Below are positions 1 through 31,890 of a stretch of DNA of 32,000 nt, piece by piece (position 1 is the stretch's first letter; every line of letters begins with the position of its first letter). The DNA lies in assembly GCA_001430755.1 (NCBI GenBank), contig CP013062.1, forward strand, positions 870,001-902,000, read 5' to 3'. The notes beneath the pieces were generated by a model. It made no database searches. It was not told the origin of the DNA and saw only the letters and a program-made list of their open reading frames with translations. The translations under genes and the position numbers were made by a program. Source of the stretch: Candidatus Peribacter riflensis (GTDB lineage Bacteria > Patescibacteriota > Gracilibacteria > Peribacterales > Peribacteraceae).

Positions 1-2
1 AA

Positions 3-479
3 GTAACGGTTGAGGAGCTGTCAGACGGATCGGTCCTCTTCTCGTTCCGCACGCAGAATACGGAAGCGCGTGAAACAATGACACAGGAACTGCTGACACC
101 TTTCTCGCTCCGGGTCATGCTCGCCAGCACGGATGACACAGGCGATCTCTTTGTAGAGGAGCAGGGATGGTTCAATGATACGGGGCTCACCCAAGCCCAT
201 ATCCTCTGGACGGAATCGGCCGCGGATCAGGATGGCAAGGGTGTGGTGCGGCTCGTATTCTCGGAGGAGGGACGTGCTCTGCTCAGGGACGTATTCCAGA
301 AGAACCCCGCAGGGATCCTGGGCCTCTTCGTCCGTGACAAGCTCATGTCCAAAATGCAGATTGAAAGTTCAGAACCGAAGGAAGAAATCACGATTACGGG
401 TATCCCGGTCCCGGATCTTGCTGCTATCTTCGCCGACGACGTGAACGTCGGCACACACATCACGTTCTCTCTTCCTTAA
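3..479 (+). CDS. hypothetical protein, 5'-partial (frame open to the left window edge); tail resembles the SecD periplasmic P1-head segment
   Basis: Frame 3 has no stop from nt 3 to the TAA at 477-479, so the ATG at 78 may be internal. The tail GILGLFVRDKLMSKMQIESSEPKEEITITG parallels KRIAIFVGGELISAPTVQQEIAGGTAIITG of the downstream SecD. I recognise no other family. Confidence 0.5.
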   Translation, partial: VTVEELSDGSVLFSFRTQNTEARETMTQELLTPFSLRVMLASTDDTGDLFVEEQGWFNDTGLTQAHILWTESAADQDGKGVVRLVFSEEGRALLRDVFQKNPAGILGLFVRDKLMSKMQIESSEPKEEITITGIPVPDLAAIFADDVNVGTHITFSLP

Positions 480-507
480 ATCTCCTTCCTATCCTCACCT
501 TCGCATC

Positions 508-2946
508 ATGGAATCCAATCGTCGCTTCATCTGGCCGGTTACCGTAGGCCTCATCGGTGTCTGTCTCCTTTTCATCACGCTCCCCGACAGCTGGAAGACC
601 TGGGCCCCCGGCTTGCTCCGCGCGCCTTCTTTTCACTTCGGGCTCGATTTGGTGGGAGGAACACAGCTCGATTTCCGCATCTCTGAGCAGGAAATGAATG
701 ACCAGATTGAACGACTGACGACAGAAATCCAGCAGCTCAAAGATGCTGGAGCGGGCTCCGAAAAAATCTACATCTTGGAGCAGCAGTTGCAGAGTACGAA
801 ACAGCAGCAGACCTCCGTCGTGGAATCCATCCGCACGGTGCTCGAGCGTCGCATCAACGCGCTGGGCGTGAGCGAGGCGGTGATCACCCCCTCGTACATG
901 GGCGACGAGCGCCATCTGCTCGTCGAGTGTCCGGGTGTAGTCGACACGCAGGCCTGTATCGAAACGGTCGGCAAGACCATTCAATTGGAATTCAAGGAGG
1001 AATTCACCGAGGCAACGGCGGAATTCGAGAAAGGCGTCCGCGAACGCGCAGATGCCTCCCTGCGCCGCATCACCGTGAGCGGTTCGACTCTGGCTGTGGT
1101 GGGGCAGGATCTCGGCTCCACCCTTGGCATCGCCTACAGCGACCAGCAGTGGTTCTTCGAAAAAGATCTTCCGCAGGGACTGGCAGATATCTGGTCGGTA
1201 CCCCGGGGGAAAGTGGTGAAACGGGAAGGCTCGATCATCGTGCCGCAGCAGGATGAGCAGGGACAGGTTACCGAAAAGACCGTTCCGGGAATCTTCCTCG
1301 CAGAAGTTCTGCAGCCACGCACCCAGACGGGACGCGTGATTCAGGAGGCACCGACGGCTTTCGCCCTGCTGGCCAAGGAACGCGGCCTCACCTACACCCC
1401 GCACCTCGAAACTCCCCTCGATGCGAAGGTGGAGCCTTCCCTCGCCGGCGCTTTGCAGGCGATGCAGCCTGGCGATTTGCGCACCGTGAGCGTGGATGAG
1501 ACTTCCGCTGCCCTCCTCTTCCTGCGTGCGCTGATCCCCGGGCAGGAGCAGATGGAAGCGAGCCACATCCTCATCTCCTACAAGGGCGCAGCGGCCGTGG
1601 GAGAGACCGTGACACGCACCAAGGAGGAGGCACTGCAGCTCGCCCAAGACATCAAGAAGCAACTGGATGACGGCGCCGACTTCGCGACGCTGGCCACGCA
1701 GTACTCCGATGACAATGGCGGCAAGGATGGCGGCAGTCTGGGTACCTTCGTCCGCGGAGCAATGGTGGCCCCCTTCGAACAAGCCGCCTTCGCACTCCCG
1801 CAAGCCGGCATCAGCGACCCGACCGAAACGCAATTCGGTTACCACGTCATCCGTGCAGACCGCGCCGCCGCGCTTTCATTCTCAGTCGCCTCCTTCGATG
1901 AACTGCGCTTCAGCGGACTCGATGCCAAAACAAAGGCGGACGTCGCACAGGCAGAACTGCAGGCAGGCAAGGTGACGCAGATGGAAGACGCCATCGCCCT
2001 GCGCACGATCTTCTTCTCGCTCCTCCCCACCGGCTGGAAAGATACGACCCTCACCGGCAAGCACTTCCGTTCGGCCGTCGTGACCTTGGATCCCACGACG
2101 AACCTGCCCATCGTGCAGATCGCCTTCGATGACGAGGGGGCAACGCTCTTCCAGGAACTCACCAAGAACAATGTGGGCAAGCGCATCGCGATCTTCGTGG
2201 GCGGTGAGCTGATCTCGGCCCCCACCGTGCAGCAGGAAATCGCAGGCGGCACGGCCATCATTACCGGCAGCGGCAACTTCGAAGAGGCCAGCCAGCTGGC
2301 ACAGGACCTCAATACGGGCGCCATTCCGGCCCCCATCTATCTGGCAGGGCAGCACACCATCGAGGCAACCCTCGGCGGCGAGGCGCTGGCGGCCTCCCTG
2401 AAAGCCGCACTCATCGGCATCGTCCTGCTCATGCTGTACATGATCCTCATCTATCGCTTCCTTGGCGTACTGGCAGACGTGGCTCTGTTGGGCTATGCCC
2501 TCCTCTTCGTGGCCATCCTCAAACTCCCGCTCTTCTTCTTCTCGAGCCAGTACATCGTGCTCACTCTCGCGGGAATGGCGGGCATCATTCTCTCTATCGG
2601 CATGGCTGTGGATGCGAACGTGCTCATCTTCGAACGCATCAAGGAAGAGCTGAAGAAAGGCAAGCTCGTGACGACGGCCGTGGAAATCGGCTTCAAGCGG
2701 GCCTGGCCGAGCATCCGCGACGGCAATGCATCAACGCTCCTCACCTGCGCCATTCTCTTCATGATCGGCACCTCAGTCGTGCGCGGCTTCTCCATCACCC
2801 TGGGCATGGGCGTGCTCATGTCGATGTTCACGGCCATCACCGTCACGCGCTGGCTCATTCGCAAGACATCCCATCTGGCGTTCGCGAAGAACTCCCGCCT
2901 GCTCGCCGGCATCCGCACCTCGCAGCAGGCAACGCCTTCACTGTGA
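508..2946 (+). CDS. secD: protein translocase subunit SecD with an inserted parvulin (PpiC-type) PPIase domain
   Basis: 812-aa ORF with ATG at 508. It has an N-terminal TM (WPVTVGLIGVCLLFITL) and the SecD pattern LDLVGGTQL. The periplasmic region reads IAIFVGGELISAPTVQQEIAGGTAIITG...NTGAIPAPI. C-terminal TM helices carry GMAVDANVLIFERIKEE and AWPSIRDGNASTLL. No SecF half is present in the ORF. Confidence 0.9.
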   Translation: MESNRRFIWPVTVGLIGVCLLFITLPDSWKTWAPGLLRAPSFHFGLDLVGGTQLDFRISEQEMNDQIERLTTEIQQLKDAGAGSEKIYILEQQLQSTKQQQTSVVESIRTVLERRINALGVSEAVITPSYMGDERHLLVECPGVVDTQACIETVGKTIQLEFKEEFTEATAEFEKGVRERADASLRRITVSGSTLAVVGQDLGSTLGIAYSDQQWFFEKDLPQGLADIWSVPRGKVVKREGSIIVPQQDEQGQVTEKTVPGIFLAEVLQPRTQTGRVIQEAPTAFALLAKERGLTYTPHLETPLDAKVEPSLAGALQAMQPGDLRTVSVDETSAALLFLRALIPGQEQMEASHILISYKGAAAVGETVTRTKEEALQLAQDIKKQLDDGADFATLATQYSDDNGGKDGGSLGTFVRGAMVAPFEQAAFALPQAGISDPTETQFGYHVIRADRAAALSFSVASFDELRFSGLDAKTKADVAQAELQAGKVTQMEDAIALRTIFFSLLPTGWKDTTLTGKHFRSAVVTLDPTTNLPIVQIAFDDEGATLFQELTKNNVGKRIAIFVGGELISAPTVQQEIAGGTAIITGSGNFEEASQLAQDLNTGAIPAPIYLAGQHTIEATLGGEALAASLKAALIGIVLLMLYMILIYRFLGVLADVALLGYALLFVAILKLPLFFFSSQYIVLTLAGMAGIILSIGMAVDANVLIFERIKEELKKGKLVTTAVEIGFKRAWPSIRDGNASTLLTCAILFMIGTSVVRGFSITLGMGVLMSMFTAITVTRWLIRKTSHLAFAKNSRLLAGIRTSQQATPSL

Positions 2947-2977: not shown

Positions 2978-3834
2978 GAGAGCCGCCTTCGGCGGTCGCT
3001 CGCGGAACCCGCCGAAGCAGCTGCGGAAAAATCAACGCATTCCTCCGTCGACTTACATCGACGGCTTCCTGCGAAGGCGGGTGAAGAACGACGGACCCGA
3101 ATGAGCACCGCGAGCAGGCGACCGATCTCCCGCTGGCTCCCAAGCAGGAACGTAGCGCGCGTCCGGCCCCCGCGGCCCACACGGACCGTGATCATGCGCC
3201 TGCGCGCAGCAGCGAAAGCCTCCTCATCTGTTTCGTCGTCGCCGACGAAGAGGCCGCTCTGAGCCCGCGCCCGCTTGAGGAGGAGCATAAGCGCATCCCC
3301 CTTATGAGGCATCTGGAGTGGAAGCAGATTGATCGAGGCTTTACCCGGAAGAAAGCGTATGGGCGGAAGGGAGCGCAGGACCTCCCGCGTGAAATACCGT
3401 TCGAAGATATGCAGGGCAGAGGGCGAACGGCTGTGGACTGTGAACGAGAAGACCTTGTCTTCGAGCCAGGCGCCATCTGCATTGTGCAGGAGACGACGCA
3501 GGTGAGGACGCCAAACGCTGCACGCGCGCCGTGCGGAACGGAGGGCTGCGCGGTGAGCCAGCAACCCCTCCGCCCCGTGATTGCCCACGAGCGAACCGGG
3601 GAACCGCGGAAAGCATCGCCGCAGATCGCTGAGACTGCGCCCCGAAACAATGGCAACGGGACCCAGACTTGCCAGCGTGCGAAGCGCGCGGTCCACGGAA
3701 GAGGGCACGCGCACCAGATCGGGATGCGGCTTGAGCGGCGCAAGCGTCCCGTCGAAATCGAAGGCAAGGAGCACACCGTGCCCCCCGAGAGACTGAAGAG
3801 CATGGCATCCCTGATGGCTCAAAATATCCCGCAC
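2959..3834 (-). CDS. otsB: trehalose-6-phosphate phosphatase (HAD family, OtsB-like)
   Basis: HAD motifs FDFDGTLAP, IVSGRS and GDDETDEEAF. The track ORF runs to 4038, but that part overlaps otsA with an Arg/Pro/His-rich N-terminus and has no internal ATG. I prefer the GTG at 3834, 6 nt after the otsA stop. The start is uncertain. Confidence 0.7.
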   Translation of the reverse strand: MRDILSHQGCHALQSLGGHGVLLAFDFDGTLAPLKPHPDLVRVPSSVDRALRTLASLGPVAIVSGRSLSDLRRCFPRFPGSLVGNHGAEGLLAHRAALRSARRACSVWRPHLRRLLHNADGAWLEDKVFSFTVHSRSPSALHIFERYFTREVLRSLPPIRFLPGKASINLLPLQMPHKGDALMLLLKRARAQSGLFVGDDETDEEAFAAARRRMITVRVGRGGRTRATFLLGSQREIGRLLAVLIRVRRSSPAFAGSRRCKSTEECVDFSAAASAGSASDRRRRLSEKPPA

Positions 3835-10886: not shown

Positions 10887-11636
10887 CTACAAGCTGCGTC
10901 CGGCATACCTCCACGCCATCTCAAAAACCTGTTTCTGCGTCTCGGCCACTTCGACACTCTCGATGATCACCCCGAAGACGTGATCGGCTGAGCCAAAAGA
11001 GCAGATTGCCACCTTGGAATCGTAGATATTGATCTCATTGGTGAAGTCGAAATCTTTGGAGGGAACGAGCCGGATCTCACGCAGGCGCTTGCGATCCTCG
11101 CCATGCACCTTGCGACCGATCTCATCATCGGGAGCGATGCCCCTGAGGCGGATCCTGCGCCGCACGCGTTCGGCCACGTACTCCCCGTCATAATCGGGCC
11201 AGAAGCGGCGCACGACCGCGGAGTTGGCGAAGTTGAGGAGCTCGCTCTTGGCCGTGAGAGTATCTTCGTACACGCGCCGGACCCCCTCCCACCCCTCGAA
11301 GAACCGGATGACGGGGCGTCGCCGGTCCTGGCCCTGGAGCGACCGCAGTTCGGGCAGAACACGGTGGAGCGCATCGGCATTCTTGCGCGCCTCGATGGCC
11401 AGATGCTCCGGCGGCACTGTCAGGTACCACTTCACCCGCCCCTTACGCACGATGGTGAAAAAACCCCTGCGTGCCAACCCCTCGAGTGTGTTGTATGCCG
11501 TGATGCGATTGAGTTTCGTGGCTTTGGCATACGATGAAGCAGGAGCCGAACCGAGCGACAATCCCGCGAGGTAGAGCGCAGATTCCTTCTCGTCTAAGCC
11601 CGTGGACCGGAGGATGTGCAGCAGGTCTGCGGCCAT
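10887..11636 (-). CDS. TrmB-family transcriptional regulator
   Basis: N-terminal winged-HTH pattern LGLDEKESALYLAGLSLGSAPASSYAKATKLNRITAYNTLEGLARRGF is typical of the TrmB family. The C-terminal domain is of TrmB-like length. Confidence 0.8.
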   Translation of the reverse strand: MAADLLHILRSTGLDEKESALYLAGLSLGSAPASSYAKATKLNRITAYNTLEGLARRGFFTIVRKGRVKWYLTVPPEHLAIEARKNADALHRVLPELRSLQGQDRRRPVIRFFEGWEGVRRVYEDTLTAKSELLNFANSAVVRRFWPDYDGEYVAERVRRRIRLRGIAPDDEIGRKVHGEDRKRLREIRLVPSKDFDFTNEINIYDSKVAICSFGSADHVFGVIIESVEVAETQKQVFEMAWRYAGRSL

Positions 11637-11658
11637 GCGCAGAGGATATTGATGTTGT

Positions 11659-11922
11659 ACAAAAAAACAACAAACAACTCACCAAAACAAAAACACAAAC
11701 AGAAAATAACAAACAGTCTACGTTGGAGGTTCCGCGCGCCACCGGGGGTGAAGGGGAAGGCCCTGTCACGCATAGAGCGGGACACGCCGACGAATCGGCT
11801 CCGAAGCCTTGGAGGAGCCGAAAGGAGGCACAGGGCCGGGCGGAGTGGGGATTGGCGCGGGGTGCGCTCTCTTTGCTTCTTTCTCTGGCGGGCAGACAGA
11901 GAAAGAAGGGAGCTCACTTCGC
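11659..11922 (+). repeat. copy A of a two-copy intergenic element (candidate structured ncRNA or miniature repeat)
   Basis: A/C-rich tract at 11659-11716. Blocks identical to copy B: 11744-11765, 11786-11793, 11801-11815 and 11823-11859. Perfect 12-bp hairpin at 11876-11887/11897-11908. Shared 10-mer CTCACTTCGC at 11913-11922, overlapping the nth stop codon. The strand given is the orientation of similarity, not proven transcription. Confidence 0.85.
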
Positions 11923-12627
11923 CCAATCCCTCTTCCCTGAAACAAGCGACGACGGGCACTCCCGCTTGAACACACACTGCTCACACTTTCTCCTCTGCCC
12001 CGTACAGACCGCCCGCCCGTGGCTGATGAAGAGCGCGTTGATCCTCCCCCACTCCTTGCGCGGGAACAATTTCATCAGGTCCCGCTCCACGCGCTCCGGC
12101 GTTCTGCCCTTTGAGAGCCCCAGCCGCCGCGCTACGCGAAACACGTGCGTATCCACCGCAATGCCCTCGTTCTTGCCAAAGGCTGCGTAGAGCACAATGC
12201 AGGCGGTCTTACGGCCGACGCCCGAAAGCGATGTCAGTGCTTCCATGGTGTGCGGAACTTTTCCACCATGCTCCATTTTAAGTTTTTTACAGAGCAGATG
12301 AATGTACTTCGCCTTGCTCCGGAAGGTCCCGCAGGAATGAATGAGCCGCTCAAGTTCATTGCGCGGGAGATGCAGATAATCATCGGCAGTCCGGCACCGC
12401 GCAAAAAGTGCGGGCGTGATGCGATTCACCTGCACATCGGTGCAGCGCGCGGAGAGGATTGTTGCAATGAGGAGATCAAGAGGGGTGCGCCACTGAAGAA
12501 AGGATTTCGGCGGACGGTAGAGCCGTTTGAGGGCGCGGAGAATATCGTTTGCGGAGGAGGAGGGAGACACGGCTCCAGTATGAAACACTTGTCTTTCGGG
12601 AGGAAGGAAAGCGTCAAGTGAACTCAT
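11914..12627 (-). CDS. nth: endonuclease III (HhH-GPD DNA glycosylase/AP lyase with 4Fe-4S cluster)
   Basis: LLIATILSARCTD, LTSLSGVGRKTACIVL, AVDTHVFRVARRLGL and the Fe-S loop CTGQRRKCEQCVFKRECP. Confidence 0.9.
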   Translation of the reverse strand: MSSLDAFLPPERQVFHTGAVSPSSSANDILRALKRLYRPPKSFLQWRTPLDLLIATILSARCTDVQVNRITPALFARCRTADDYLHLPRNELERLIHSCGTFRSKAKYIHLLCKKLKMEHGGKVPHTMEALTSLSGVGRKTACIVLYAAFGKNEGIAVDTHVFRVARRLGLSKGRTPERVERDLMKLFPRKEWGRINALFISHGRAVCTGQRRKCEQCVFKRECPSSLVSGKRDWAK

Positions 12628-20106: not shown

Positions 20107-23100
20107 CTACTGCCTGCCGCGCAAAACCCGTACGAAGAGGAGAACGAACGTGAGGAGAATAGAACCCACTATGGCACCAATCGCCCAGATCCACGACACG
20201 CCCCAATCCGGGATCTGTTGCTCCACTGGAGCGGAGGGATATGCCGGTATGACAGGCAGGATCCCGGCAGAGGAAGCAGAGGAAAGAGAAGAAGATTCCT
20301 GCGAGGAGGAAGAAGAGGAGGATACGGGCTCCTCGATACTACAGAGGGCAGAGCAGCCGTCCTCGTCCGTCACATTCCCGTCATCACACTGCTCAGGATC
20401 GTCGATGATCCCGTCCCCGCAGACAGGAGAAGGCGGGGCGTCCGCCGGATGCTCGAGAGTACAGAAGACGGAGCAGCCGTCGCCATACATGATGTTGCCG
20501 TCATCGCACTGCTCGCCTGCCTCGAGAAAACCATTACCACAGAGAACATTGGCTGCAGAACTGGCAGATGACAAAGCAGAATCGGCGGCAGTGGGCATGG
20601 GAGTGCAGAGGCAGTCAGCGGCGCAGAAGGAACCCGACTCACATGGCAGGCCACGCTCGCACTGCTCTCCGGGATCGAGAACGCCATCACCACAGGCAGC
20701 GAGTGGCATCGAAGACGCAGAGAAAGACGACAGCGAGGAGGTGACGGAGGAGGCGGAAAGAGCAGCCAGCAGCGCGGACTCTGACGAGAGAGAAGAAGAT
20801 TGTGCAGTCACCCCGGGCAGCAGGATGCACTGACACAGGTACGTGCAGTACCTGCCGGCAGGGCAGGGGGCACCGACTTCGCACTGCTCACCTGCATCCA
20901 GAATGCTGTTGCCGCAAAGGGACGCCTGGGACGAGACAGAGGAGAACGACGAGGAAGAAACGGAAGAGAGCAGGACACACTGGCACTGCGATGGATGGCA
21001 TGCGTACCCCGAGGGACAACCCGTGACGCCAACTTCGCACTGCTCGCCGGCATCCAGAATGCCATTGCTGCAGAGCGCGATTCCTGCAACAGACGTAGTG
21101 GCCGAGGATTGCGAGGAACCCCGTGAGGAGGAGCGGGGAGTGCAGGAGCAGGATGCCGTGCAGAAACCGCCACCAGGGCAGGGATGGTTGGTATCGCACT
21201 GCTCGCTGCCTTCGAGAAGTCCATTGCCGCAGCGTGGGAGAACCGACACGGAAGAGGATCGGGAAGAAGAGGAAGGGAACATCCCAATGACGAACGACGA
21301 AGCGGCACTGGACACGCCCTGTTCGGTCCGGCAGGCGGAGGAACAACCATCTCCGGAAACGAGATCGCCGTCATCGCATTGCTCCGATCCGGCACGGATA
21401 CCATCGCCGCAGAGGGTGCCACAGACACTGGGCACACCTTCACAGACCCACCCGGGCTCACGCTGACAGGTCTGTCCGCAGCCGTCTCCGGTCAGGCGGT
21501 TGCCATCGTCACACTGCTCACCGGTCTCAATCAGACGATTGGCACAGAAACTCCCCGCCTGGGAACCAAAAGAGCTCTGGGCACCCGAAGAAGAGGAAGC
21601 CAAAGACCGGCAAGTGCCCGCAGCACAAAAACCGGGACAGGTGATTGTTTCTGTCAAAGGCAGCCCAGTGGAAGCGGGACAGAATGACTCTACGAGTCTG
21701 GTCGTACTCTCGCAGTAATCCGTATATCCCTGCACCGTTTCTAAGCCGCTCGAAGCACGGCTCCCCCCCCTGGTGATACCGGACACCGTGTAATTCTTCC
21801 CTCCGTCACTATCGGTGCACGCATTATCGAAAGGAGCGGCAGAGGAATGACTGGATGCGCCTGAAGATACAGAAGACGGCTCTGTCAGACACATACCACC
21901 GAGGCACTTGTACGGACAGATGTGAGTCATGGTGGAAGGAAGCCCACGCGGTTGGGAGCAGAAGACCTCCAGCAGCGTCTTGTCACTCAGACAACGATCA
22001 ATGATGGTTTCATGCCGGTCGAGACCGCTGATCCTCGCCGCACCATCTCCCCTTCCGGCGGTGGCAAAGTCCTTTCCCCCGTCACTGTCGGTACACGCAT
22101 CCCAAGGCTCGCAGGTGGAAGGCATGGGTGTGTTGTTGCAGATCCAATCCGTCTCAACGACGCACAGAGGGGAACACCCATCCCCAGCCGTCTTGTTGCC
22201 ATCGTCACAGATCTCGTCGGTGCCCGCATCGAGCGCGCCATTGCCGCAGCTGGTGAACGCACACGTGCTGGGCGAGCCGGCACAGGTCCACCCGGGCTTC
22301 GCAGTACAGGAAGCAGTGCAGCCGTTCACATTACGCGCCTCACAATGGGTAAATGCACAGTCGACGTCCGTGTAACACCGGCGATCATTCGTGCATTGCA
22401 GACGTGTGCCGCCACCCTCATAAGGCAAATTCCGGCACGCTTCACCCATTTTGCAGGAACGGGTATCACAAAAGATGATGTCGTCGCACCGTTTGCCGAT
22501 GTCACACTGTTCGCCGTTATTGACGACGCCATCGCCGCAGATCTCGCGCTTACAGAGAGAGGTACATCCGTCCCCATCTATCTGATTCCCGTCGTCGCAC
22601 TCCTCCCCATTGGTCGTGCACACCTCTCTGCTGGTTCCCACGGCAAAACCCCAATTGAGCGTGGGAACCGGCCGACAATCCGTGAACAACGGGCCCTGAA
22701 CTCCATCTCCGCAGCGCCAGCACATCCACTCCGCCTCATCCGCAGCAGAGAGGTAGGGCTTTTTGAAGCATTCACTGCCCGGTTCGATCTGGCATGTGTT
22801 CGAGCAGCCGTCCCCATTCGCCCTGTTCCCGTCGTCACACACCTCGTACGTCGAGGGATTTGCGTATCCGTCACCGCAGTATATGCACTGCAGGGGTGTT
22901 TCGACGTAGTTGGAGGCCGGTGTGTAACCGAGCCCGTCATTGATGAGCTCAAAATCCGATCGGAAGCCGCTGCCACCCGGTCCATACTCATGATGCGCAC
23001 ATGGATCCGGCGACGTGGTTTTGAAGTAGATATCGATCAGGCGGGCCTGCCCGCTGGGCAGGAGGGGTATAGAACACGTGATCTGCGTACCCTGCACGGC

Positions 23101-23763
23101 ACACCCGGTAATCGGTTCGACCGCAAAACACTCTTGGAGGCCCGCAATGCAGCCGGTGCCGGATGCGATATGATCGAAGACAAAGGCATTGGCCGCATAC
23201 CCTTCGGGAAAGTGCGGCGTCAGTCTGAAGGAATAGCGATCCGCCGCGGTCATGTCAGCCAGGCCGCGATTCCAGACGATGACAGGAAACTTCATCATCG
23301 CCCCCCAGTAGGGCAAATTGACATTGTCCCGCGCGGGCGGATCGAGGATGTACTGCACATCCCCGAAGTAACCGTTGTACCCGCGCAACATCGACTCAAT
23401 TGTTGCAATGAACGCTCCGACCTGAACAGTGTGTGGAGCGGCCACCGTCACCACGGAAGCTACTGATGAAGAACGTGAACTCGATCTCGAAGAAACACCA
23501 CTCACGCTTGGGCAGGTACAGTGCATGGTGCATGCCTGCTGGCCGGGGCAGGGAGCCACGAAGTAGTCAATAGTCGGATCGCACGTTTCGCCCGGATCCT
23601 CCCTGCGGTTGCCGCATGTACCCGGGAGAATCTGTCCCAACATATCCGAGCTACCTGGCAGCACCAGAATGCCCTGCTGCCATGCCAAAAACGCCGAGGC
23701 CAAAAAAATAAAGAGGAGGAGCCAGAGCTTCGCGGCTGCCGGTGGGAGACGAAGAAGGCGCAT
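20107..23763 (-). CDS. giant secreted/anchored cysteine-rich repeat surface protein (Myxococcus-type CGDG...EQCDDGN...GDGC repeats, Ser-rich linkers, C-terminal TM anchor)
   Basis: Signal-like N-terminus MRLLRLPPAAAKLWLLLFIFLASAFLA. At least 7 canonical repeats, e.g. CGNGFLEAGEQCDDGNIMYGDGCSVFCTLE. Five shorter variant modules, poly-Ser linkers, and the C-terminal WIWAIGAIVGSILLTFVLLFVRVLRGRQ. I prefer the ATG at 23763 (TGtTATAGT plus 10 nt upstream) over the GTG at 23775. Confidence 0.85.
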   Translation of the reverse strand: MRLLRLPPAAAKLWLLLFIFLASAFLAWQQGILVLPGSSDMLGQILPGTCGNRREDPGETCDPTIDYFVAPCPGQQACTMHCTCPSVSGVSSRSSSRSSSVASVVTVAAPHTVQVGAFIATIESMLRGYNGYFGDVQYILDPPARDNVNLPYWGAMMKFPVIVWNRGLADMTAADRYSFRLTPHFPEGYAANAFVFDHIASGTGCIAGLQECFAVEPITGCAVQGTQITCSIPLLPSGQARLIDIYFKTTSPDPCAHHEYGPGGSGFRSDFELINDGLGYTPASNYVETPLQCIYCGDGYANPSTYEVCDDGNRANGDGCSNTCQIEPGSECFKKPYLSAADEAEWMCWRCGDGVQGPLFTDCRPVPTLNWGFAVGTSREVCTTNGEECDDGNQIDGDGCTSLCKREICGDGVVNNGEQCDIGKRCDDIIFCDTRSCKMGEACRNLPYEGGGTRLQCTNDRRCYTDVDCAFTHCEARNVNGCTASCTAKPGWTCAGSPSTCAFTSCGNGALDAGTDEICDDGNKTAGDGCSPLCVVETDWICNNTPMPSTCEPWDACTDSDGGKDFATAGRGDGAARISGLDRHETIIDRCLSDKTLLEVFCSQPRGLPSTMTHICPYKCLGGMCLTEPSSVSSGASSHSSAAPFDNACTDSDGGKNYTVSGITRGGSRASSGLETVQGYTDYCESTTRLVESFCPASTGLPLTETITCPGFCAAGTCRSLASSSSGAQSSFGSQAGSFCANRLIETGEQCDDGNRLTGDGCGQTCQREPGWVCEGVPSVCGTLCGDGIRAGSEQCDDGDLVSGDGCSSACRTEQGVSSAASSFVIGMFPSSSSRSSSVSVLPRCGNGLLEGSEQCDTNHPCPGGGFCTASCSCTPRSSSRGSSQSSATTSVAGIALCSNGILDAGEQCEVGVTGCPSGYACHPSQCQCVLLSSVSSSSFSSVSSQASLCGNSILDAGEQCEVGAPCPAGRYCTYLCQCILLPGVTAQSSSLSSESALLAALSASSVTSSLSSFSASSMPLAACGDGVLDPGEQCERGLPCESGSFCAADCLCTPMPTAADSALSSASSAANVLCGNGFLEAGEQCDDGNIMYGDGCSVFCTLEHPADAPPSPVCGDGIIDDPEQCDDGNVTDEDGCSALCSIEEPVSSSSSSSQESSSLSSASSAGILPVIPAYPSAPVEQQIPDWGVSWIWAIGAIVGSILLTFVLLFVRVLRGRQ

Positions 23764-23773
23764 CCCTCTCGCC

Positions 23774-23782
23774 ACTATAACA
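23774..23782 (-). promoter_or_regulatory. extended -10-like TGtTATAGT upstream of the giant surface-protein gene
   Basis: The reverse complement of 23774-23782 reads TGTTATAGT. It lies 10 nt upstream of the ATG at 23763. Confidence 0.45.
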
Positions 23783-26250: not shown

Positions 26251-27645
26251 TCAACGGTGCAGGGACGGAGAGGGGTGCAGCTGCATTGCGAGCAGGAGCC
26301 AGACGCTGTACGCCACTGCACTATCCTCCCATGCATGGAGGAAGAGTGCGGCAATACTGATGCCGAGGAATGTGAGGAAGGCGACCTGCTGAAGTTCCCG
26401 AATCCCCGAGTTCCCGAGTTCCCGAGCAAGCATGCGCAGGATCAACACCACCAACGCCAGGAACAGCACAAACCCCAGCACCCCGAGTTCAACGCCGACT
26501 TGGAGGTACCAGTTCTCAGGCAGGAACGGGCAGCGGCACGCGTGATCCGCCGGTTGAACCTGGGTTGTGCCGAGGAAGACGCAGAGCCGGGGCGTCGTCT
26601 TCGCCCACGACGGATCATCCTGCGGCCGCAAAAAGACGCACGTCTCGCTCACACGGTTACTGGCAGGCCCTGCCGCCCCCAAGCCCTCGCCGAGCGGTTG
26701 AGCCCACATGTGTCCGATGGCCTGCAGCGGACGGACCAGGTGCCCGCGCGAGGAGGAGAGGCGGAAGAAGACTGACGGAAAGAGAAGAGACGCAACGATG
26801 GCAATGGCCACCATGATCAGCACCGCCCCCGCGGCCACACCCTTGAGGAGCCGGCGCGGGACACTCCTGCAGAGCGTCACCATCGCCATGACGAACGCGG
26901 CAATCCACGCTGCTCGGGAAAACGTGAGAAAGAGCGCGACAAGAAGCACGATCGCCGAGACAATCGCAATAGTCCGTGGCCGCGGACGGACCAGCAGTAC
27001 GCTCAAGGGAATGAGAAGCCATAACCCAAACTGATTCGGCCCACTCATCGTTGATTGAATCCGCCGAAGCGCCGTCTCGCTCACTTGTTGGAATGCGGCC
27101 AGCGGACCGTCGGCAAAGTAGAGCGAGTGTGCCGGGGAATAGCCGAGCCACAGAAAAAATTTCATCGGCAAGAACGCTGTGAAAATGCCATACGCGGAAA
27201 CAATGACACCGATTCCAAGAAGAACCTTAAGCGCCATCCGTTGAAACGCTTCCGACCACTGCACTCGACGCGCGACGAGGAAAGAAACAAGCGGAATGAA
27301 GTCGTACCGGAACCCCAGCAGTGCGAGCTTCAGATCTCCATGCGTGAATGCCGTGACGACGAGCCCGAGCACCAGCAACGCAACGATCAATCCATCAATA
27401 ACATCCCATCTGCTACCCGAAGTCCGAAGTCCGAAGTCCGAAGTCCACCGGAAAGATGCGGCTACCTCCGCCACGATCAACAGCAGAATCACTCCCAACA
27501 ATGCCTCTTTCCAGAGCGCAAGGTACGGGAGCGGCGCGTGGCCTTTGCCCATCACGAGCCTCGTGCCCACGGTCACCAGAAGCGCGTGCAGCGGCAGAAG
27601 AGCCAGGAGCAGGAGCGTGAGCCGTTCACGGAGACATTGGAGCAT
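26251..27645 (-). CDS. O-antigen ligase / O-antigen polymerase family (Wzy_C-like) polytopic membrane protein
   Basis: More than 10 hydrophobic helices. Typical core LTFSRAAWIAAFVMAMVTL followed by a large loop ...WAQPLGEGLGAAGP... and ENWYLQVGVELGVLG. This resembles the SRGAW...G.G.G...HNxYLq..aElG pattern. Confidence 0.7.
   Translation of the reverse strand: MLQCLRERLTLLLLALLPLHALLVTVGTRLVMGKGHAPLPYLALWKEALLGVILLLIVAEVAASFRWTSDFGLRTSGSRWDVIDGLIVALLVLGLVVTAFTHGDLKLALLGFRYDFIPLVSFLVARRVQWSEAFQRMALKVLLGIGVIVSAYGIFTAFLPMKFFLWLGYSPAHSLYFADGPLAAFQQVSETALRRIQSTMSGPNQFGLWLLIPLSVLLVRPRPRTIAIVSAIVLLVALFLTFSRAAWIAAFVMAMVTLCRSVPRRLLKGVAAGAVLIMVAIAIVASLLFPSVFFRLSSSRGHLVRPLQAIGHMWAQPLGEGLGAAGPASNRVSETCVFLRPQDDPSWAKTTPRLCVFLGTTQVQPADHACRCPFLPENWYLQVGVELGVLGFVLFLALVVLILRMLARELGNSGIRELQQVAFLTFLGISIAALFLHAWEDSAVAYSVWLLLAMQLHPSPSLHR
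26393..26424 (-). repeat. four tandem octamers (CGGGAACT/CGGGGATT on the coding strand) inside the ligase-like CDS
   Basis: Plus strand reads AGTTCCCG AATCCCCG AGTTCCCG AGTTCCCG. It encodes RELGNSGIREL in an inter-helix loop. Confidence 0.85.
27417..27446 (-). repeat. 4.3 tandem heptamers (CCGAAGT on plus, CGGACTT-type on the coding strand) inside the ligase-like CDS
   Basis: CCGAAGT occurs four times (27417-27444) plus CC. It encodes TSDFGLRTSG in an inter-helix loop. Confidence 0.9.
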
Positions 27646-27652
27646 GTGGCTA

Positions 27653-27721
27653 GAATTAAGAATAATGAATAAAGAATCAAGGAAGAAGATGCTCCGTTGC
27701 TTAATTCGTAATTCTTAATTC
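27653..27721. repeat. AT-rich 11-bp inverted repeat bracketing the ligase/epimerase intergenic region
   Basis: GAATTAAGAAT (27653-27663) pairs with ATTCTTAATTC (27711-27721). The right arm overlaps the epimerase stop codon (27715-27717). The intervening 47 nt are AT-rich in an otherwise GC-rich window. Confidence 0.7.
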
Positions 27722-29058
27722 CCCTCTCGTTTACCCAGTCGTTCCTCATCTGACCGGAACACCTCGCCCTTCTTCAGCACCGTTTCCACCGCATCGATGC
27801 ACTGGGCACTCACGTTTTTGCCGTAGAGCTTCGGCACTTTCTGCATGTCCTTATTGTCCCACGCAAATTCAACCATCTTCTTGATCGCTGCGGCATCCGC
27901 CGGCGGCGCGATGAGGTTGCCGCCCGCCATGGCCGACTCGCTGCGGTCGGACCCGAACCGGAGCGTGACACATGGAATCCCCATGGCATTCATCTCCTCC
28001 TGCATCGATCCGGAATCGGTTGCGCAGACCGAAGCCTTGGTCATGGCCGCCATCACGTCGACGTACTCGGGCCAGACGGGTGAATAGAGGAAGTTCTTGT
28101 GTTTCTTGGCGAGTGCTTCCACCTCTTTCTTGAGCCCCATCCGCTCGAAAGCACGCTCCGTCTGCGTCATTGTGATGAGCAGCACATTGCGACCGTCTTT
28201 CACGAGAGAAACCATCGCATCGTAAATCGCCCTGAACCTGAGATCCGATCCGCAATTCTCTCTGCGATGGATGCAGAAGCGCACAAAGTCGCCTTGGGCG
28301 AGCGTGGGGTACTGATCAAAGACTTTCGCCTGATCGACGCGCGTCATCGCCTCGCCAATGGCATCCACCACAGAGTTGCCCACGACGAAGATGCGGTCTT
28401 CGGGGAACCCCTCGCCGCGCAAAAATTCCCGATCCAGATCGACAGGGGCAAGATGCACACCTGTTGCCGCCTCGCTGCAGCGGGTATTGAACTGCTCCGG
28501 ATACGGCTCCAGGCTCCCCCGTTCCCAGTTCTTCTGGTCCATGAGGAACTTTCTCCAAGCGGCAACATCCATCTCTCCCGAAGTCCGATTCCCGATTCCC
28601 GATTCCCGATACTTCGGCGTCAACGTCCGAATCCCCGCCTCGACATGCACCGACGCAAATCCGTGGCTGAATCCCGCATTGCTCGCCGCCATGGCCGTGG
28701 TGGTGTCGCCGTGCACATAGGGAATGACCACCTTGCCGCGCTCTTTGAGCTCACCGATGACAAACCCGAGCCGCCCGATGATCTGGCTCACGATCTCGTG
28801 CATCACGCCGCGCACGTTTAAGTTGAAATCCGGATCGACCCCGTACTCCTTCAGCATGCCGCCGCTGAGGTTTTCGCTGTAGTGCTGACCCGTGTGCCCG
28901 AGCAGGACCAGGTGCCCGCGCTTCTTCAATTCAAAGTACAGCGGCAGCTGCTTGATGATATCGGGCTTGGTCGCGATGAGAATCAGGTGCACATGGCGCT
29001 GAGGCGCCTTGGCCACCTCGTCAAAGAATTTCTTGGAGCGGTAGGTGATTTCCTGCAT
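27715..29058 (-). CDS. UDP-N-acetylglucosamine 2-epimerase (non-hydrolysing, WecB/MnaA family) with a ~35-aa insertion
   Basis: LILIATKPDIIKQLPL, LLGHTGQHY, VHGDTTTAMAASNAGF, VHVEAGIRT, PYPEQFNTR and VVGNSVVDA. I prefer the ATG at 29058 (TATGCT plus 8 nt upstream). A GTG at 29064 is also possible. Confidence 0.85.
   Translation of the reverse strand: MQEITYRSKKFFDEVAKAPQRHVHLILIATKPDIIKQLPLYFELKKRGHLVLLGHTGQHYSENLSGGMLKEYGVDPDFNLNVRGVMHEIVSQIIGRLGFVIGELKERGKVVIPYVHGDTTTAMAASNAGFSHGFASVHVEAGIRTLTPKYRESGIGNRTSGEMDVAAWRKFLMDQKNWERGSLEPYPEQFNTRCSEAATGVHLAPVDLDREFLRGEGFPEDRIFVVGNSVVDAIGEAMTRVDQAKVFDQYPTLAQGDFVRFCIHRRENCGSDLRFRAIYDAMVSLVKDGRNVLLITMTQTERAFERMGLKKEVEALAKKHKNFLYSPVWPEYVDVMAAMTKASVCATDSGSMQEEMNAMGIPCVTLRFGSDRSESAMAGGNLIAPPADAAAIKKMVEFAWDNKDMQKVPKLYGKNVSAQCIDAVETVLKKGEVFRSDEERLGKREGN
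28578..28617 (-). repeat. heptamer array (CGGGAAT x3 plus CGGACTT on the coding strand) flanked by a 7-nt inverted repeat, inside the epimerase CDS
   Basis: Plus strand reads CCGAAGT CCGATT CCCGATT CCCGATT CCCGAT ACTTCGG. It encodes YRESGIGNRTSGE. CCGAAGT (28578-28584) is the reverse complement of ACTTCGG (28611-28617). Confidence 0.85.
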
Positions 29059-29823: not shown

Positions 29824-30141
29824 ATGGACTTTCACCGCGTTTCCAATTTTCGTTTCTTCCACACCATCGGATGGGCCGTGCTTCTGTGCGCGCTCATCGT
29901 GGCCGTGGCCGCCACCCTCGGCCGCGCGACATTGAACTTGAAAGCCGCCCTGACCGACAAGCCCGACATCGCCATCTACCTGCTCCTTCCGGAGGAGGAA
30001 ATCGGCCGCACGCTCCTGCTCAGGGACAAAGGTGACGAGCGCGACTATCTGGCCGAAACGAAAGACGGGCCGAAACTCGTGCGCTTAAAGAAGGGTGAGA
30101 AGCAGTGGTACGTGGAGGAAGTGCAGACACTGAGGGAATGA
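29824..30141 (+). CDS. small hypothetical membrane protein
   Basis: One hydrophobic helix (FFHTIGWAVLLCALIVAVAATL). Its stop overlaps the next gene's start in an ATGA junction (30138-30141), which suggests translational coupling. The ATG at 29824 is preceded by TACAAT. Confidence 0.5.
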   Translation: MDFHRVSNFRFFHTIGWAVLLCALIVAVAATLGRATLNLKAALTDKPDIAIYLLLPEEEIGRTLLLRDKGDERDYLAETKDGPKLVRLKKGEKQWYVEEVQTLRE

Positions 30142-30881
30142 GACCTCGTGTCTCCCTCCTCGGCGTACCTTTGGATCCCGTCACCCGGACGGAGGCTGTG
30201 ATGATCATCCGGGGATTTCTGCGCGAGGGAATTCAGCGGCATGTGATGACGCCGAATAACGAAATGCTGGTGGAAGCGGTACACAATGTGCCATTTCAGG
30301 AGCTCCTCAACCGCTCAGATCTGAACATCCCCGATTCCACCGGCCTCCTCAAGATGGCCCGGCTGACGGGACAGAGCTTGCCCGAGCGTGTGACGGGCGT
30401 GGATACCGTCACCTCGCTCTGCAGGGAGCTCACCGAAGAAACTCCTGTTTTCCTCTTGGGGGCGAAACCGGGTGTCGCAGAGGCCGCAGCTGCAACGCTC
30501 ATGAGGCAGAATGCTCGCTTGAAAATCGTCGGCTGCTTTGCGGGAAGCCCAAAGGAAGAAGATGCCCCCGGCATCGTGAACATGATCTGTGCCGCCGCAC
30601 CGCACCTGCTCTTCGTCGCGTTCGGCGCCCCCGCGCAGGATCTGTGGATCGCGAAACACCTCAAAGACCTTCCCTCCGTGCACGTGGCAATGGGCGTCGG
30701 CGGGACCTTCGACTTCCTCGCAGGCGTGCGCAAGCGCGCCCCGATTGGAATGCAGCGCCTCGGGCTGGAATGGCTCTGGCGCCTCCTCAAAGAGCCGAAG
30801 AGAATCGGCAGAATCTGGGAAGCGGTCGTGGTGTTTCCGCTACTGGTACTGCGTTACGGCAAAGATGTTCCGCAGAAATGA
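30138..30881 (+). CDS. WecG/TagA/CpsF-family glycosyltransferase (UDP-ManNAc transferase type)
   Basis: LLGVPLDPVT, VMTPNNEMLV, NIPDSTGLL, VFLLGAKPGVAE, LLFVAFGAPAQDLWI and MGVGGTFDFLAGVRKRAP...GLEWLWRLLKEPKR. I prefer the ATG at 30138 over the track start at 30105. Confidence 0.85.
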   Translation: MRPRVSLLGVPLDPVTRTEAVMIIRGFLREGIQRHVMTPNNEMLVEAVHNVPFQELLNRSDLNIPDSTGLLKMARLTGQSLPERVTGVDTVTSLCRELTEETPVFLLGAKPGVAEAAAATLMRQNARLKIVGCFAGSPKEEDAPGIVNMICAAAPHLLFVAFGAPAQDLWIAKHLKDLPSVHVAMGVGGTFDFLAGVRKRAPIGMQRLGLEWLWRLLKEPKRIGRIWEAVVVFPLLVLRYGKDVPQK

Positions 30882-30883
30882 AA

Positions 30884-31144
30884 TCCAACAAAACAACCTA
30901 CACAAACGGAACAGAAACAAACAGTACACAGCATACAGGTGGGGGCGCGACACGGGGGGTGAAGGGGAAGGCCCTGCCACGCGAAGCGTGGAATGCCGAC
31001 GAGACGAGCCGAAGCCTTGGAGGCAAGGCGAGGAGGAACAGGGCCGGGCGGAGCGGGGATTGGCGCGCACGCGTTTTGGCTCCACCTTTGTCGCTCGGAC
31101 AAAGGTGGAAAGAAATCCAATTCGCCTCACCAGCCTCACTTCGC
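30884..31144 (+). repeat. copy B of the two-copy intergenic element (candidate structured ncRNA or miniature repeat)
   Basis: A/C-rich tract at 30884-30935. Blocks identical to copy A: 30955-30976, 30995-31002, 31009-31023 and 31031-31067. Perfect 12-bp hairpin at 31081-31092/31098-31109. Shared CTCACTTCGC at 31135-31144. Confidence 0.85.
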
Positions 31145-31158: not shown

Positions 31159-31890
31159 ATGCGCAAAGCCACCCTCTTCACCTTGAGCTGCAGCCTGCTC
31201 CTCGCAGCCTGCACGCTCCCCACCCCCTCTCGGCAGCAACAGAACTCTCCCGCATCTTCGTCGAGCGCAAGCTCCGAAGAAGTACAACTCCAGGGGGAGG
31301 AAATCGGCGAGGGCATGCCCCTGACTGAGGAACTGACCGAGACCGGCGCTCTGGCCGAACGATTCCTCTCGACTGGCGTACTCGAGATCGGCAACCCACA
31401 GGCGCCTCTGACCCTCCTCATGTTCACCGAACACCACTGCAGCTACTGCCGGCAGGTTTTGCTCGAGCTCTTTCCGCGACTCAAGACAGACGCACTCGAC
31501 TTGGGCAGTGTGAAAGTACAGATCGCCATGCTCCCCCTGCAGAAATACCAGAAGAGCACCGAGGCCGCCCTGGGTTTCATCTGCAGCGCCGCACAGGGCA
31601 AAGGGCTCGCCATGCATGACACCCTCTTCCGCAACCCCAATAAATCCAAGGAGGCGATTCTCTCGTACGCGGTGGATCTGAAGCTCGACACCGCCTTGCT
31701 GCGCGACTGCATGAAGAGCGCACGGACGACCGCCATGCTCGAGGACCAGCAGGTCTGGGCGCAGAGCCTGGGAATAGATGTGGTGCCCACGTTCTTCCTC
31801 AACGGCGAAAAGTTCATCGGGCTCCCGTATTATCCAGATCTCAGGGGCAGAATCGAAGAGGCACTGCAAGCGCTCAAGGAGCAGCAGTGA
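31159..31890 (+). CDS. DsbA/thioredoxin-fold lipoprotein (thiol:disulfide oxidoreductase-like)
   Basis: Lipoprotein signal MRKATLFTLSCSLLLAAC (lipobox LAAC). Active-site-like HHCSYCRQ (CxxC). DsbA-like tail GIDVVPTFFLNGEKFIG. Confidence 0.8.
   Translation: MRKATLFTLSCSLLLAACTLPTPSRQQQNSPASSSSASSEEVQLQGEEIGEGMPLTEELTETGALAERFLSTGVLEIGNPQAPLTLLMFTEHHCSYCRQVLLELFPRLKTDALDLGSVKVQIAMLPLQKYQKSTEAALGFICSAAQGKGLAMHDTLFRNPNKSKEAILSYAVDLKLDTALLRDCMKSARTTAMLEDQQVWAQSLGIDVVPTFFLNGEKFIGLPYYPDLRGRIEEALQALKEQQ

Follow-up and report, generated by a model that had tools for sequence, protein, structure and literature searches.

The question raised by this locus is what kind of sequence occurs twice, read in the same direction, in the 32,000-nucleotide stretch of Candidatus Peribacter riflensis DNA analyzed here (CP013062.1, positions 870,001 to 902,000; hereafter the window), and whether it belongs to the genes beside it or is an element of its own. 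Copy A lies at approximately 11725-11908 and copy B at approximately 30938-31109, both on the plus strand. Their conserved blocks, a 22-mer and a 29-mer, each occur exactly twice in the window, which none of 100 shuffles reproduced, and the resemblance between the copies is far above chance. A re-check against the window letters placed both copies, and every hairpin listed in a preliminary description of this DNA, at the positions given there. The two copies belong to an undescribed, Peribacteria-specific family of structured, non-coding, dispersed elements, in which orientation is tied to a replication-type strand asymmetry and not to the neighboring genes, and individual copies are retained at orthologous sites, with purifying selection acting on their fold.

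The taxonomic range of the family was outlined by an exact two-block pattern scan over a collection of species-representative genomes. It returned 54 loci, 44 of which were true homologues, all in metagenome-assembled genomes of Candidatus Peribacteria, Peribacteraceae or Peregrinibacteria and several per genome; the other ten were evident chance matches within genes of unrelated phyla. A covariance model built on 42 copies and applied to the loci of the genome and metagenome (degenerate-pattern) scans recovered at least 160 copies, at least 139 of them unique, all in genomes and metagenomes of Candidatus Peribacteria/Peribacteraceae (loci carrying family copies are labeled below with L-numbers). 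The element measures ~180 nt, with a typical length of about 175-200 nt, and is present in roughly 10-40 copies per ~1.2 Mb genome. Copies within a genome are more alike than copies from different genomes, and one locus (L082) is 97-100% identical to the window region around copy A, which places the window in a Peribacteria population of groundwater type. Protein-coding sequence was rejected as an explanation, given element lengths (184-223 nt) that are not multiples of three, the lack of 3-nt periodicity and substitutions that take the form of base-pair covariation. No Rfam 15 family reached its gathering score anywhere in the window, and relaxing the limit to E<=10 yielded nothing but spurious microRNA and long non-coding RNA models far under their thresholds; a search of the window for tRNA and tmRNA genes found none, and collections of viral contigs, phages and plasmids contained no family match. 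Full-text literature searches, which included the paper on complete Peribacter genomes (PMC4736985), returned no description of such an element. Bacterial dispersed structured repeats and non-coding RNA families are a kind of sequence already known, and it is the present combination that is absent from Rfam and the searchable literature.

Folding of the single window copies yielded z-scores of -2.7 to -3.7 relative to shuffles, on either strand, a modest gain that made comparative data necessary. Across 99 distinct sequences and 28 modeled pairs, the core exhibited standard pairs in 97.1% of cells, and 27 of the 28 pairs were changed on both sides. Double-change cells numbered 410 as compared with 101 in shuffles, none of 500 shuffles matched the observed pairing and double changes, sliding the partner strands lowered the pairing to 25-42%, and the 46-sequence set gave an unchanged picture. 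RNAalifold independently recovered the helix P2 and the conserved arm, and a mutual-information scan of the core for extra pairs or pseudoknots returned just the annotated pairs and the linkage between subtypes. The preliminary description had proposed that the helices are kept in structure and not in sequence; these counts, together with the terminal hairpin, in which 14 of 15 pairs are double-changed across the family, bear this out well beyond the two window copies. On the sense strand there were 32 G-U pairs and 16 A-C mismatches, the G-U pairs amounting to only 1.2% of all core cells.

The core follows a constant order, namely a 5' purine motif, P1 (9 bp), the junction J1/2 GGGGGUGAAGGGGAA, P2 (7 bp), the hairpin P2a, the arm (P3), the junction J2/1 GGGCGGAGnGGG and the 3' strand of P1. 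The purine motif (family consensus GGRGGGG) stands 2-4 nt ahead of P1, where the family position-specific profile is G-rich from -8 to -2; it reads GGAGG in copy A (11725-11729) and GGTGGG in copy B, where motif and P1 5' strand together cover 30938-30952. All P1 pairs are double-changed across the family. In copy A the P1 strands are CGCGCGCCA (11733-11741) and TGGCGCGGG (11853-11861), which pair with a single G.G mismatch, and in copy B GGCGCGACA (30944-30952) pairs with 31061-31069 at seven of nine positions. The purine-rich J1/2 is almost invariant (CCGGGGGTGAAGGGGAA at 11742-11758 in copy A; CGGGGGGTGAAGGGGAA in copy B, where it extends with the P2 5' strand over 30953-30976), and its segment GGGGGUGAAGGGGAAGG is at least 95% conserved, partly as an effect of the search pattern, which required GGGGGUGAAGGGGAAGG. 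P2 joins GGCCCTG to CAGGGCC in both copies (11759-11765 with 11831-11837; 30970-30976 with 31039-31045). J2/1 is GGGCGGAGTGGGGAT in copy A (11838-11852), of which GGGCGGAG is almost invariant, and GGGCGGAGCGGGGAT in copy B, where the P2 3' strand, J2/1 and the P1 3' strand together occupy 31039-31069.

The two structures borne by P2 differ in their conservation. P2a is variable in length and sequence across the family (4-13 bp) and displays compensatory changes among orthologues; it reads TCACGC-ATAGA-GCGGGA in copy A (11766-11782) and CCACGC-GAA-GCGTGG in copy B (30977-30991), and both the T:A to C:G change and the replacement of an A.G mismatch by A:T, noted previously for this pair, were confirmed. 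The arm (11786-11829 in copy A, with an inner stem of 11795-11802 and 11814-11821; 30995-31038 in copy B) starts with GCC/GGC, which closes two tandem G.A/A.G pairs split by one C-G pair; the tandem G.A pairs are conserved in the family and are found in copy B as well. Next comes the inner stem, which exhibits the strongest covariation of the family, and then a conserved 11-nt loop, GAAnCCUUGGA, closed in turn by G.A/A.G and represented by GAAGCCTTGGA in both window copies (31011-31021 in copy B). In the fold proposed here, P1 and P2 would enclose an internal loop made up of the two purine-rich, almost invariant strands, and P2 would bear the variable hairpin and the conserved arm, the latter on tandem sheared G.A pairs.

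The 3' domain begins after P1 and ends with the terminal hairpin. The two window hairpins had been described as perfect 12-bp stems of unrelated sequence. The stems are indeed perfect, with arms CTTCTTTCTCTG (11876-11887) and CAGAGAAAGAAG (11897-11908) around a 9-nt loop in copy A (hairpin 11876-11908), and TCCACCTTTGTC (31081-31092) and GACAAAGGTGGA (31098-31109) around a 5-nt loop in copy B (hairpin 31081-31109, followed by an A-rich tail), but their sequences represent two recurrent subtypes of one family, which share the loop-proximal UUUGUC/GACAAA and a design that puts pyrimidines in the 5' arm and purines in the 3' arm. The hairpin is also maintained in further copies, as each intact copy carries a perfect terminal hairpin of 9-16 bp with this same design.

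Between P1 and the hairpin, a linker of 4-6 nt could pair with the hairpin loop, the complementary sequences falling into at least six compensatory classes (GGCG:CGCC, CGCC:GGCG, UGCGC:GCGCA, AGCGC:GCGCU, CCGCC:GGCGG and GGUG:CACC). The mean linker-loop helix length was 3.34, versus 2.84 in shuffled sequences, a value as high being reached in none of 3000 permutations, and pairing of at least 4 bp was present in only 28 of 64 sequences. In MAFFT alignments, the linkers of the two subtypes fall in different columns. This complementarity supports a putative stem 1 of a pseudoknot, formed by the linker and the hairpin loop. In copy A, where the linker GTGCGC and the pyrimidine tract CTCTCTTTG occupy 11862-11875, a UGC of the linker is complementary to GCA at 11892-11894 in the loop; in copy B, where the linker CGCG and the tract TTTTGGC occupy 31070-31080, GCG is complementary to CGC at 31092-31094.

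The pyrimidine tract that separates the linker from the hairpin is a mirror of the hairpin 5' arm, copy A being an example, and is hence a parallel copy of the purine arm with U for A and C for G. Among 29 long-tract sequences, the parallel match beat the antiparallel one in 18, tied in nine and lost in two, and within-class permutation gave 0 of 5000 for the tract and purine arm, whereas the antiparallel control gave 94 of 5000. The register does not vary: there is a 1-nt linker, and the match ends 4 bp from the base of the stem. UUUUGG or UUUGGG in the tract covaries with AAAGG or AAAGGG of the purine strand, and in the short-tract subtype G stands opposite G. An H-type pseudoknot with loop 1 in the deep groove of stem 2 has the topology of a triple-helix pseudoknot, and the relations found in the 3' domain appear to match such a topology, with loop 1 running along the deep groove of stem 2. 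The constant 4-bp offset would fit a strand crossing an A-form deep groove, and the relation of the tract to the purine arm suggests a triple helix, which would contain U.A-U and C+.G-C triples. In the proposed domain, the linker after P1 would pair with the loop of the pyrimidine/purine hairpin, and the tract would lie parallel to the purine arm, like loop 1 of triple-helix pseudoknots. An extension of P1 through pairing of the 5' purine motif with the pyrimidine tract was also considered and rejected for want of specific covariation (5.67 observed, 5.94 shuffled).

Turning to orientation, the preliminary description had judged it independent of the flanking genes and the element not simply an untranslated region of its neighbors. 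Both judgments hold at the level of the family, in which all four configurations of upstream and downstream genes are common with two crude gene callers, and long open reading frames (ORFs) run in the same direction as the element for only 55% of their length. Co-oriented upstream genes amounted to 70% versus 54%, the two callers disagreeing; neighbor gene orientation follows no fixed rule, and nothing is claimed for it beyond that. What had escaped the earlier view is that orientation is not free, since it follows the replication-type asymmetry of the strands. In flanking DNA taken at least 500-1000 nt from any copy, GC skew was negative on the element sense strand in 82 of 100 unique copies (p ~6e-11) and AT skew was positive in 81 of 100 (p ~3e-10). 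The coding strands of long ORFs have almost no skew, which, together with their weak co-orientation with the element, means that gene orientation cannot explain the polarity.

Copies on one locus share a strand in 12 of 14 multi-copy cases. The sole loci with opposite orientations are L079, at 505-703 (-) and 719-912 (+), and L155, at 1-168 (+) and 3301-3463 (-); the L079 pair is arranged head-to-head, 15 nt apart, and one of its members is degenerate (39.9 bits). Along the plus strand of the window, AT skew is positive in nearly every 4-kb window and cumulative GC skew falls steadily whatever the gene orientation, so the whole window lies on one replichore arm, and the two copies read the same way because orientation follows the strand asymmetry. 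Under Lobry's rule, the strand with C>G and A>T is the lagging-strand sequence, and the element sense strand would be assigned to the lagging-strand sequence on this basis. The published Peribacter skew plot has the expected form and agrees with the lagging assignment (PMC4736985). Comparison with tRNA genes (11 to 8) was too small to inform, as were the other polarity markers at the loci (no 16S match, one EF-Tu and one S12). Orientation coupled to replication is known best from IS200/IS605 elements (PMC5027513).

Nearly all copies are intergenic, and only one intragenic copy was verified among about 139 unique ones. It lies antisense and in frame in a Wzy_C O-antigen-ligase gene (L025 6747-6941, the same as L083 6197-6391), where it adds 60 codons in a loop region; the window orthologue of this gene (26251-27645) lacks the insertion. 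In L025 a second copy is found just upstream of the Wzy_C gene, at a site that is empty in the window (~27645-27735). Eight other ORFs that span the element either had no Pfam support or had a domain wholly to one side of it. Filled and empty orthologous sites in related genomes reveal presence/absence variation, although these sites have diverged too far for exact insertion boundaries to be visible. A 119-nt remnant (L133 411-529) occupies a site where orthologous copies are full-length (L113 4097-4290 and L125 4872-5065), and copies can therefore decay by internal deletion. The element is thus a dispersed repeat that has been gained, lost, truncated and once placed in frame within a gene.

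Certain sites nonetheless keep their copy. The nth/TrmB site of copy A is occupied in the window, L024 and L116, and the tagA/dsbA site of copy B in the window, L006 and L120. Orthologous copies (A with L024; B with L006 and L120) are 86-87% identical, as against 72-79% for the coding flanks and only 70% for paralogous copies, and exhibit compensatory changes in P2, P2a and the arm. Taken together, these values mean that each copy is vertically inherited under selection on its fold, without homogenization between copies A and B.

No protein family accompanies the element. An all-against-all BLASTP of the 2,941 ORFs within 3 kb of copies detected no recurrent protein family, its two large clusters being translations of the element itself, and no Y1 (HUH) transposase adjoined any copy among these ORFs. 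Direct repeats of at least 10 nt flanked 13 of 84 copies as compared with 7 of 84 in a shifted control, a weak signal. Long inverted repeats within copies are internal helices only (P1, P2, arm and hairpin); with none at the element ends, a classical miniature inverted-repeat transposable element defined by terminal inverted repeats was rejected. At copy B, an 11/12 direct repeat (AATGAAATCCAA at 30877-30888 and AAAGAAATCCAA at 31109-31120) brackets the copy and its leader, the first unit overlapping the tagA stop codon and the second beginning with the final base of the hairpin; this repeat is a possible target-site duplication.

The flanks of the window copies bear on the limits of the element. 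By Pfam annotation, copy A lies between TrmB (10887-11636, -) and HhH-GPD/nth (11914-12627, -), antisense to both, and copy B between WecG/TagA (30105-30881, +) and DsbA/Thioredoxin_4 (31159-31890, +). Ahead of copy A is a low-complexity A/C-rich leader (11650-11722, +) with an internal 27-nt direct repeat (11659-11685 and 11687-11713, 70% identity), and ahead of copy B a comparable one (30889-30937, +) fills the space between the direct repeat AATGAAATCCAA and the core. Most family copies are preceded by A-rich, G-poor sequence devoid of any conserved position, and a position-specific profile upstream of 44 copies was A-rich only, with no fixed -10 or -35. Membership of the leader in the element is uncertain, because an A-rich stretch is also found at empty sites. 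In many copies the purine motif is preceded, at a distance of a few bases, by a semi-conserved AACAG(T)A, and this sequence or the leader repeat might serve as a non-canonical promoter element or reflect a preference for certain insertion sites.

Downstream of both copies, a shared 10-mer, CTCACTTCGC, is located at 11913-11922 and 31135-31144. In copy A it does contain the nth stop codon (TCA, 11914-11916), as had been pointed out, but it is not a feature of the family, for it recurs only in the orthologues of the two copies (9/10 in L024 and 8/10 in L116; 10/10 in L120 and 9/10 in L006) and nowhere in the rest of the family. It may be either chance or the relic of a duplication that took flanking sequence along. 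Also in copy A, GGGATTGG of J2/1 (11848-11855) is fully complementary to CCAATCCC (11923-11930), which lies 15 nt past the terminal hairpin within the end of the nth gene; the pairing is not general in the family, and copy B has only CCAAT downstream as a counterpart of CCAATCCC. Elsewhere, the terminal-hairpin loop of some copies contains another small repeat, of ~95 nt with inverted ends TCCTTCGGCTTCGCTCAGGAC ... GACCCTGAGCGAAGTCGAAGGG (L021 and L044 ~2500-2620, L012, L030, L046, L045), and some copies have further short hairpin inserts, located either ahead of the hairpin or in the interval from P1 to J1/2. Small structured insertions in Peribacteria genomes seem to belong to several families. 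Among the genes near copies, L119 has a tmRNA gene (11086-11497, tag peptide ANYKQKFASLKARFTARPAFAHAFALAAA) 4.5 kb from an element copy and on the same strand, and within the window, a gene at 20107-23775 (-) codes for a DUF4215 repeat protein of 1222 aa.

We tentatively favor, short of confidence, a stand-alone structured RNA or RNA module with mobile-repeat behavior, a reading in which we infer both the acting molecule and its function. Transcription of each copy on its G-rich strand would yield a small, stable RNA, or else an RNA module, with an invariant junction to which a conserved partner, probably a protein, would attach, and the 3' triple-helix pseudoknot would take the place of a canonical terminator and shield the 3' end. 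RNA is favored because of the invariant unpaired purines, the G.A motifs, the pseudoknot/triplex design, the excess of G-U pairs and the conservation above that of coding flanks. Several observations weigh against this. Almost wholly Watson-Crick pairing and perfect terminal stems are more typical of a constraint at the DNA level or on both strands than of RNA, and the ratio of G-U to A-C is only 2:1. A sigma-70 promoter scan of both window copies found none, and the triple helix is read from sequence relations only. Sense transcription would run head-on to replication by Lobry's rule, the opposite of well-expressed RNA genes, which are expected to be co-directional with it. Finally, the presence/absence pattern, the in-frame intragenic copy, the truncated copies and the similarity within genomes call for a separate explanation. 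The few wobble pairs, perfect palindromes, head-on polarity and mobile-repeat behavior are the reasons why an element of single-stranded DNA (ssDNA) stays a serious rival, if a somewhat unlikely one. It would fold at the replication fork, either as a non-autonomous relative of IS200/IS605 or REP sequences moved in trans by a HUH (Y1) transposase or as a strand-specific initiation or priming signal; an enzyme would recognize the conserved fold, and action on one template strand would produce the orientation bias. The strong skew polarity on both measures (p ~1e-10), for which gene orientation does not account, and the nearly constant strand of copies on the same contig suit this proposal, as do the filled and empty sites, the in-frame insertion, the remnants and the closer likeness of copies within a genome, and, as in IS200/IS605, the lack of terminal inverted repeats and of a consistent target duplication. 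It fits less well that no transposase or other protein recurs beside copies, that the family was not found in viral contigs, phages or plasmids, and that orthologous copies are intact, compensatory, more conserved than coding flanks and not homogenized with paralogues, which argues for host-level selection on each copy. Functional RNAs, and not known transposon ends, are marked by invariant unpaired purines, tandem G.A pairs and pseudoknots of the triple-helix type, and G-U exceeds A-C on the G-rich strand, yet it is the C-rich strand that would be on the lagging-strand template.

Readings that tie the element to its neighboring genes fare worse. A cis-acting module, which would halt or insulate transcription in a polar manner, or stabilize 3' ends, in the sense direction only, including where transcription runs head-on to replication, is improbable. 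Nearly all copies are intergenic and often lie 10-130 nt past the stop codon of a co-oriented gene, and with the longest-ORF caller there were 10 convergent to 4 divergent gene pairs and, among tandem pairs, 20 co-oriented to 7 anti-oriented; the second caller, however, gave no orientation preference (53 to 45 upstream, 61 to 50 downstream), and copy A is antisense to both neighbors. The polarity would be sensible for halting head-on transcription, and with a stable hairpin or triple helix at the 3' end, 3' exonucleases would be kept out, but a 180-nt fold with invariant junctions far exceeds what termination needs. As the preliminary description had observed, no T-tract follows the terminal hairpins on either strand, and they lead into A-rich sequence; intrinsic terminators were accordingly rejected. 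The P1 3' strand and linker can form a short G+C hairpin followed by a U-rich tract, and in copy A a terminator scan flagged GGCGCG-GGG-TGCGCT plus the tract as terminator-like, a weak alternative hairpin. A riboswitch or protein-binding 5' leader of the downstream gene, in which the hairpin would hide the Shine-Dalgarno-like purine arm (AAAGGUGG / GAAAGAAGG), is very improbable. The core with its invariant junction is aptamer-like, P1 and the alternative hairpin have a strand in common, and the purine arm resembles a ribosome-binding site, with a start codon ~10-20 nt on in a few loci (L031, L035). Against this, the downstream gene is on the opposite strand in ~40-45% of copies, copy A included, downstream genes have no common family or theme, no Rfam family matches, and the orientation follows the replication strand, as in no riboswitch; context essentially excludes this reading. 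A long shot, lastly, is a replication-fork-coupled chromosomal signal peculiar to Peribacteria, in which folded ssDNA or its RNA would mark replichore polarity as a dispersed priming or restart site, much like plasmid single-strand origins, or as a dedicated stop for head-on transcription, with the triple-helix pseudoknot and invariant purine junction as recognition surface.

Comparison with known systems places the element near several of them. REP/BIME sequences and the palindrome-associated elements (PATEs) derived from IS200/IS605 are replication-oriented and moved by Y1 HUH transposases (PMC5027513). Like REP and PATE sequences, the element is dispersed, intergenic, non-coding, oriented with a replication-type bias and defined by hairpins in place of terminal inverted repeats or regular target duplication. 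It is five times longer than a REP and differs from these systems in a core of several helices with unpaired, invariant strands, in a putative pseudoknot and in hairpins that are perfect and not imperfect. Identity with REP/BIME itself (imperfect palindromes of 20-40 nt that keep a conserved tetranucleotide at the 5' end and often form inverted pairs) was rejected, given ~180-nt copies with a multi-helix core that are single and lie on one strand in 12 of 14 multi-copy loci. As further differences, no transposase gene is near its copies, these are kept at orthologous sites with compensatory evolution, and G-U pairs favor the strand that would not be on the lagging-strand template.

Rickettsia palindromic elements (RPEs), ERIC, BOX and Correia are short, structured, non-autonomous repeats, and RPEs often lie in frame in genes. 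The element resembles RPEs as a short structured repeat scattered in a small genome and able to sit in frame (Wzy_C in L025). It differs in having one intragenic copy in ~139 unique ones, a spread over many Peribacteria lineages, deep covariation, strict polarity and no terminal inverted repeats; frequent in-frame insertion of the RPE kind was rejected on the strength of this single verified case. In the telomerase RNA pseudoknot, SAM-II, preQ1-II and ENE/MALAT1-type elements, a pyrimidine strand lies parallel to the purine strand of a helix. The element would share with them U opposite A and C opposite G in the tract and a linker-loop pairing in the place of stem 1, and departs from them in a stem 2 that is perfect and 9-16 bp long, in loops 2 and 3 of ~0-2 nt, which would be sterically tight, and in the G opposite G of the short-tract subtype; there is no sequence or Rfam relationship, and the likeness is drawn from sequence alone. 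The omega/reRNAs of IscB and TnpB (including HEARO) and the bridge RNAs of IS110 are multi-helix scaffolds of ~150-300 nt linked to single-strand-type transposons and sometimes found in many copies. The element falls into the same size class and is likewise conserved, multi-helix and multi-copy, but a transposon guide-RNA scaffold was rejected, as no nuclease or recombinase gene adjoins it, its flanks hold a conserved purine-rich motif and not a variable guide, and Rfam gave no match at E<=10. Single-strand origins (ssoA-type, G4-type ssi and the M13 minus origin) are strand-specific folded ssDNA of ~100-300 nt; the element shares their strand specificity, orientation dependence and conserved structure, and differs in being chromosomal and multi-copy, those origins being single sites on replicons with a single-stranded stage.

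Candidate-phyla-radiation bacteria have genomes of ~1.2 Mb and almost no described non-coding RNA biology, and we know of no bacterial RNA family or repeat that combines such covariation, a likely triple-helix pseudoknot and replication-tied orientation. By a rough estimate from copy numbers, the family may fill ~0.2-0.5% of a Peribacteria genome. If the element acts as RNA, it would be a new complex RNA class with a defined partner yet to be found; if it acts as ssDNA, it would represent a mobile or replication-linked element of a new type. In both cases, the family would provide a testable handle on genome organization in an uncultivated lineage and a ready alignment for structural work.

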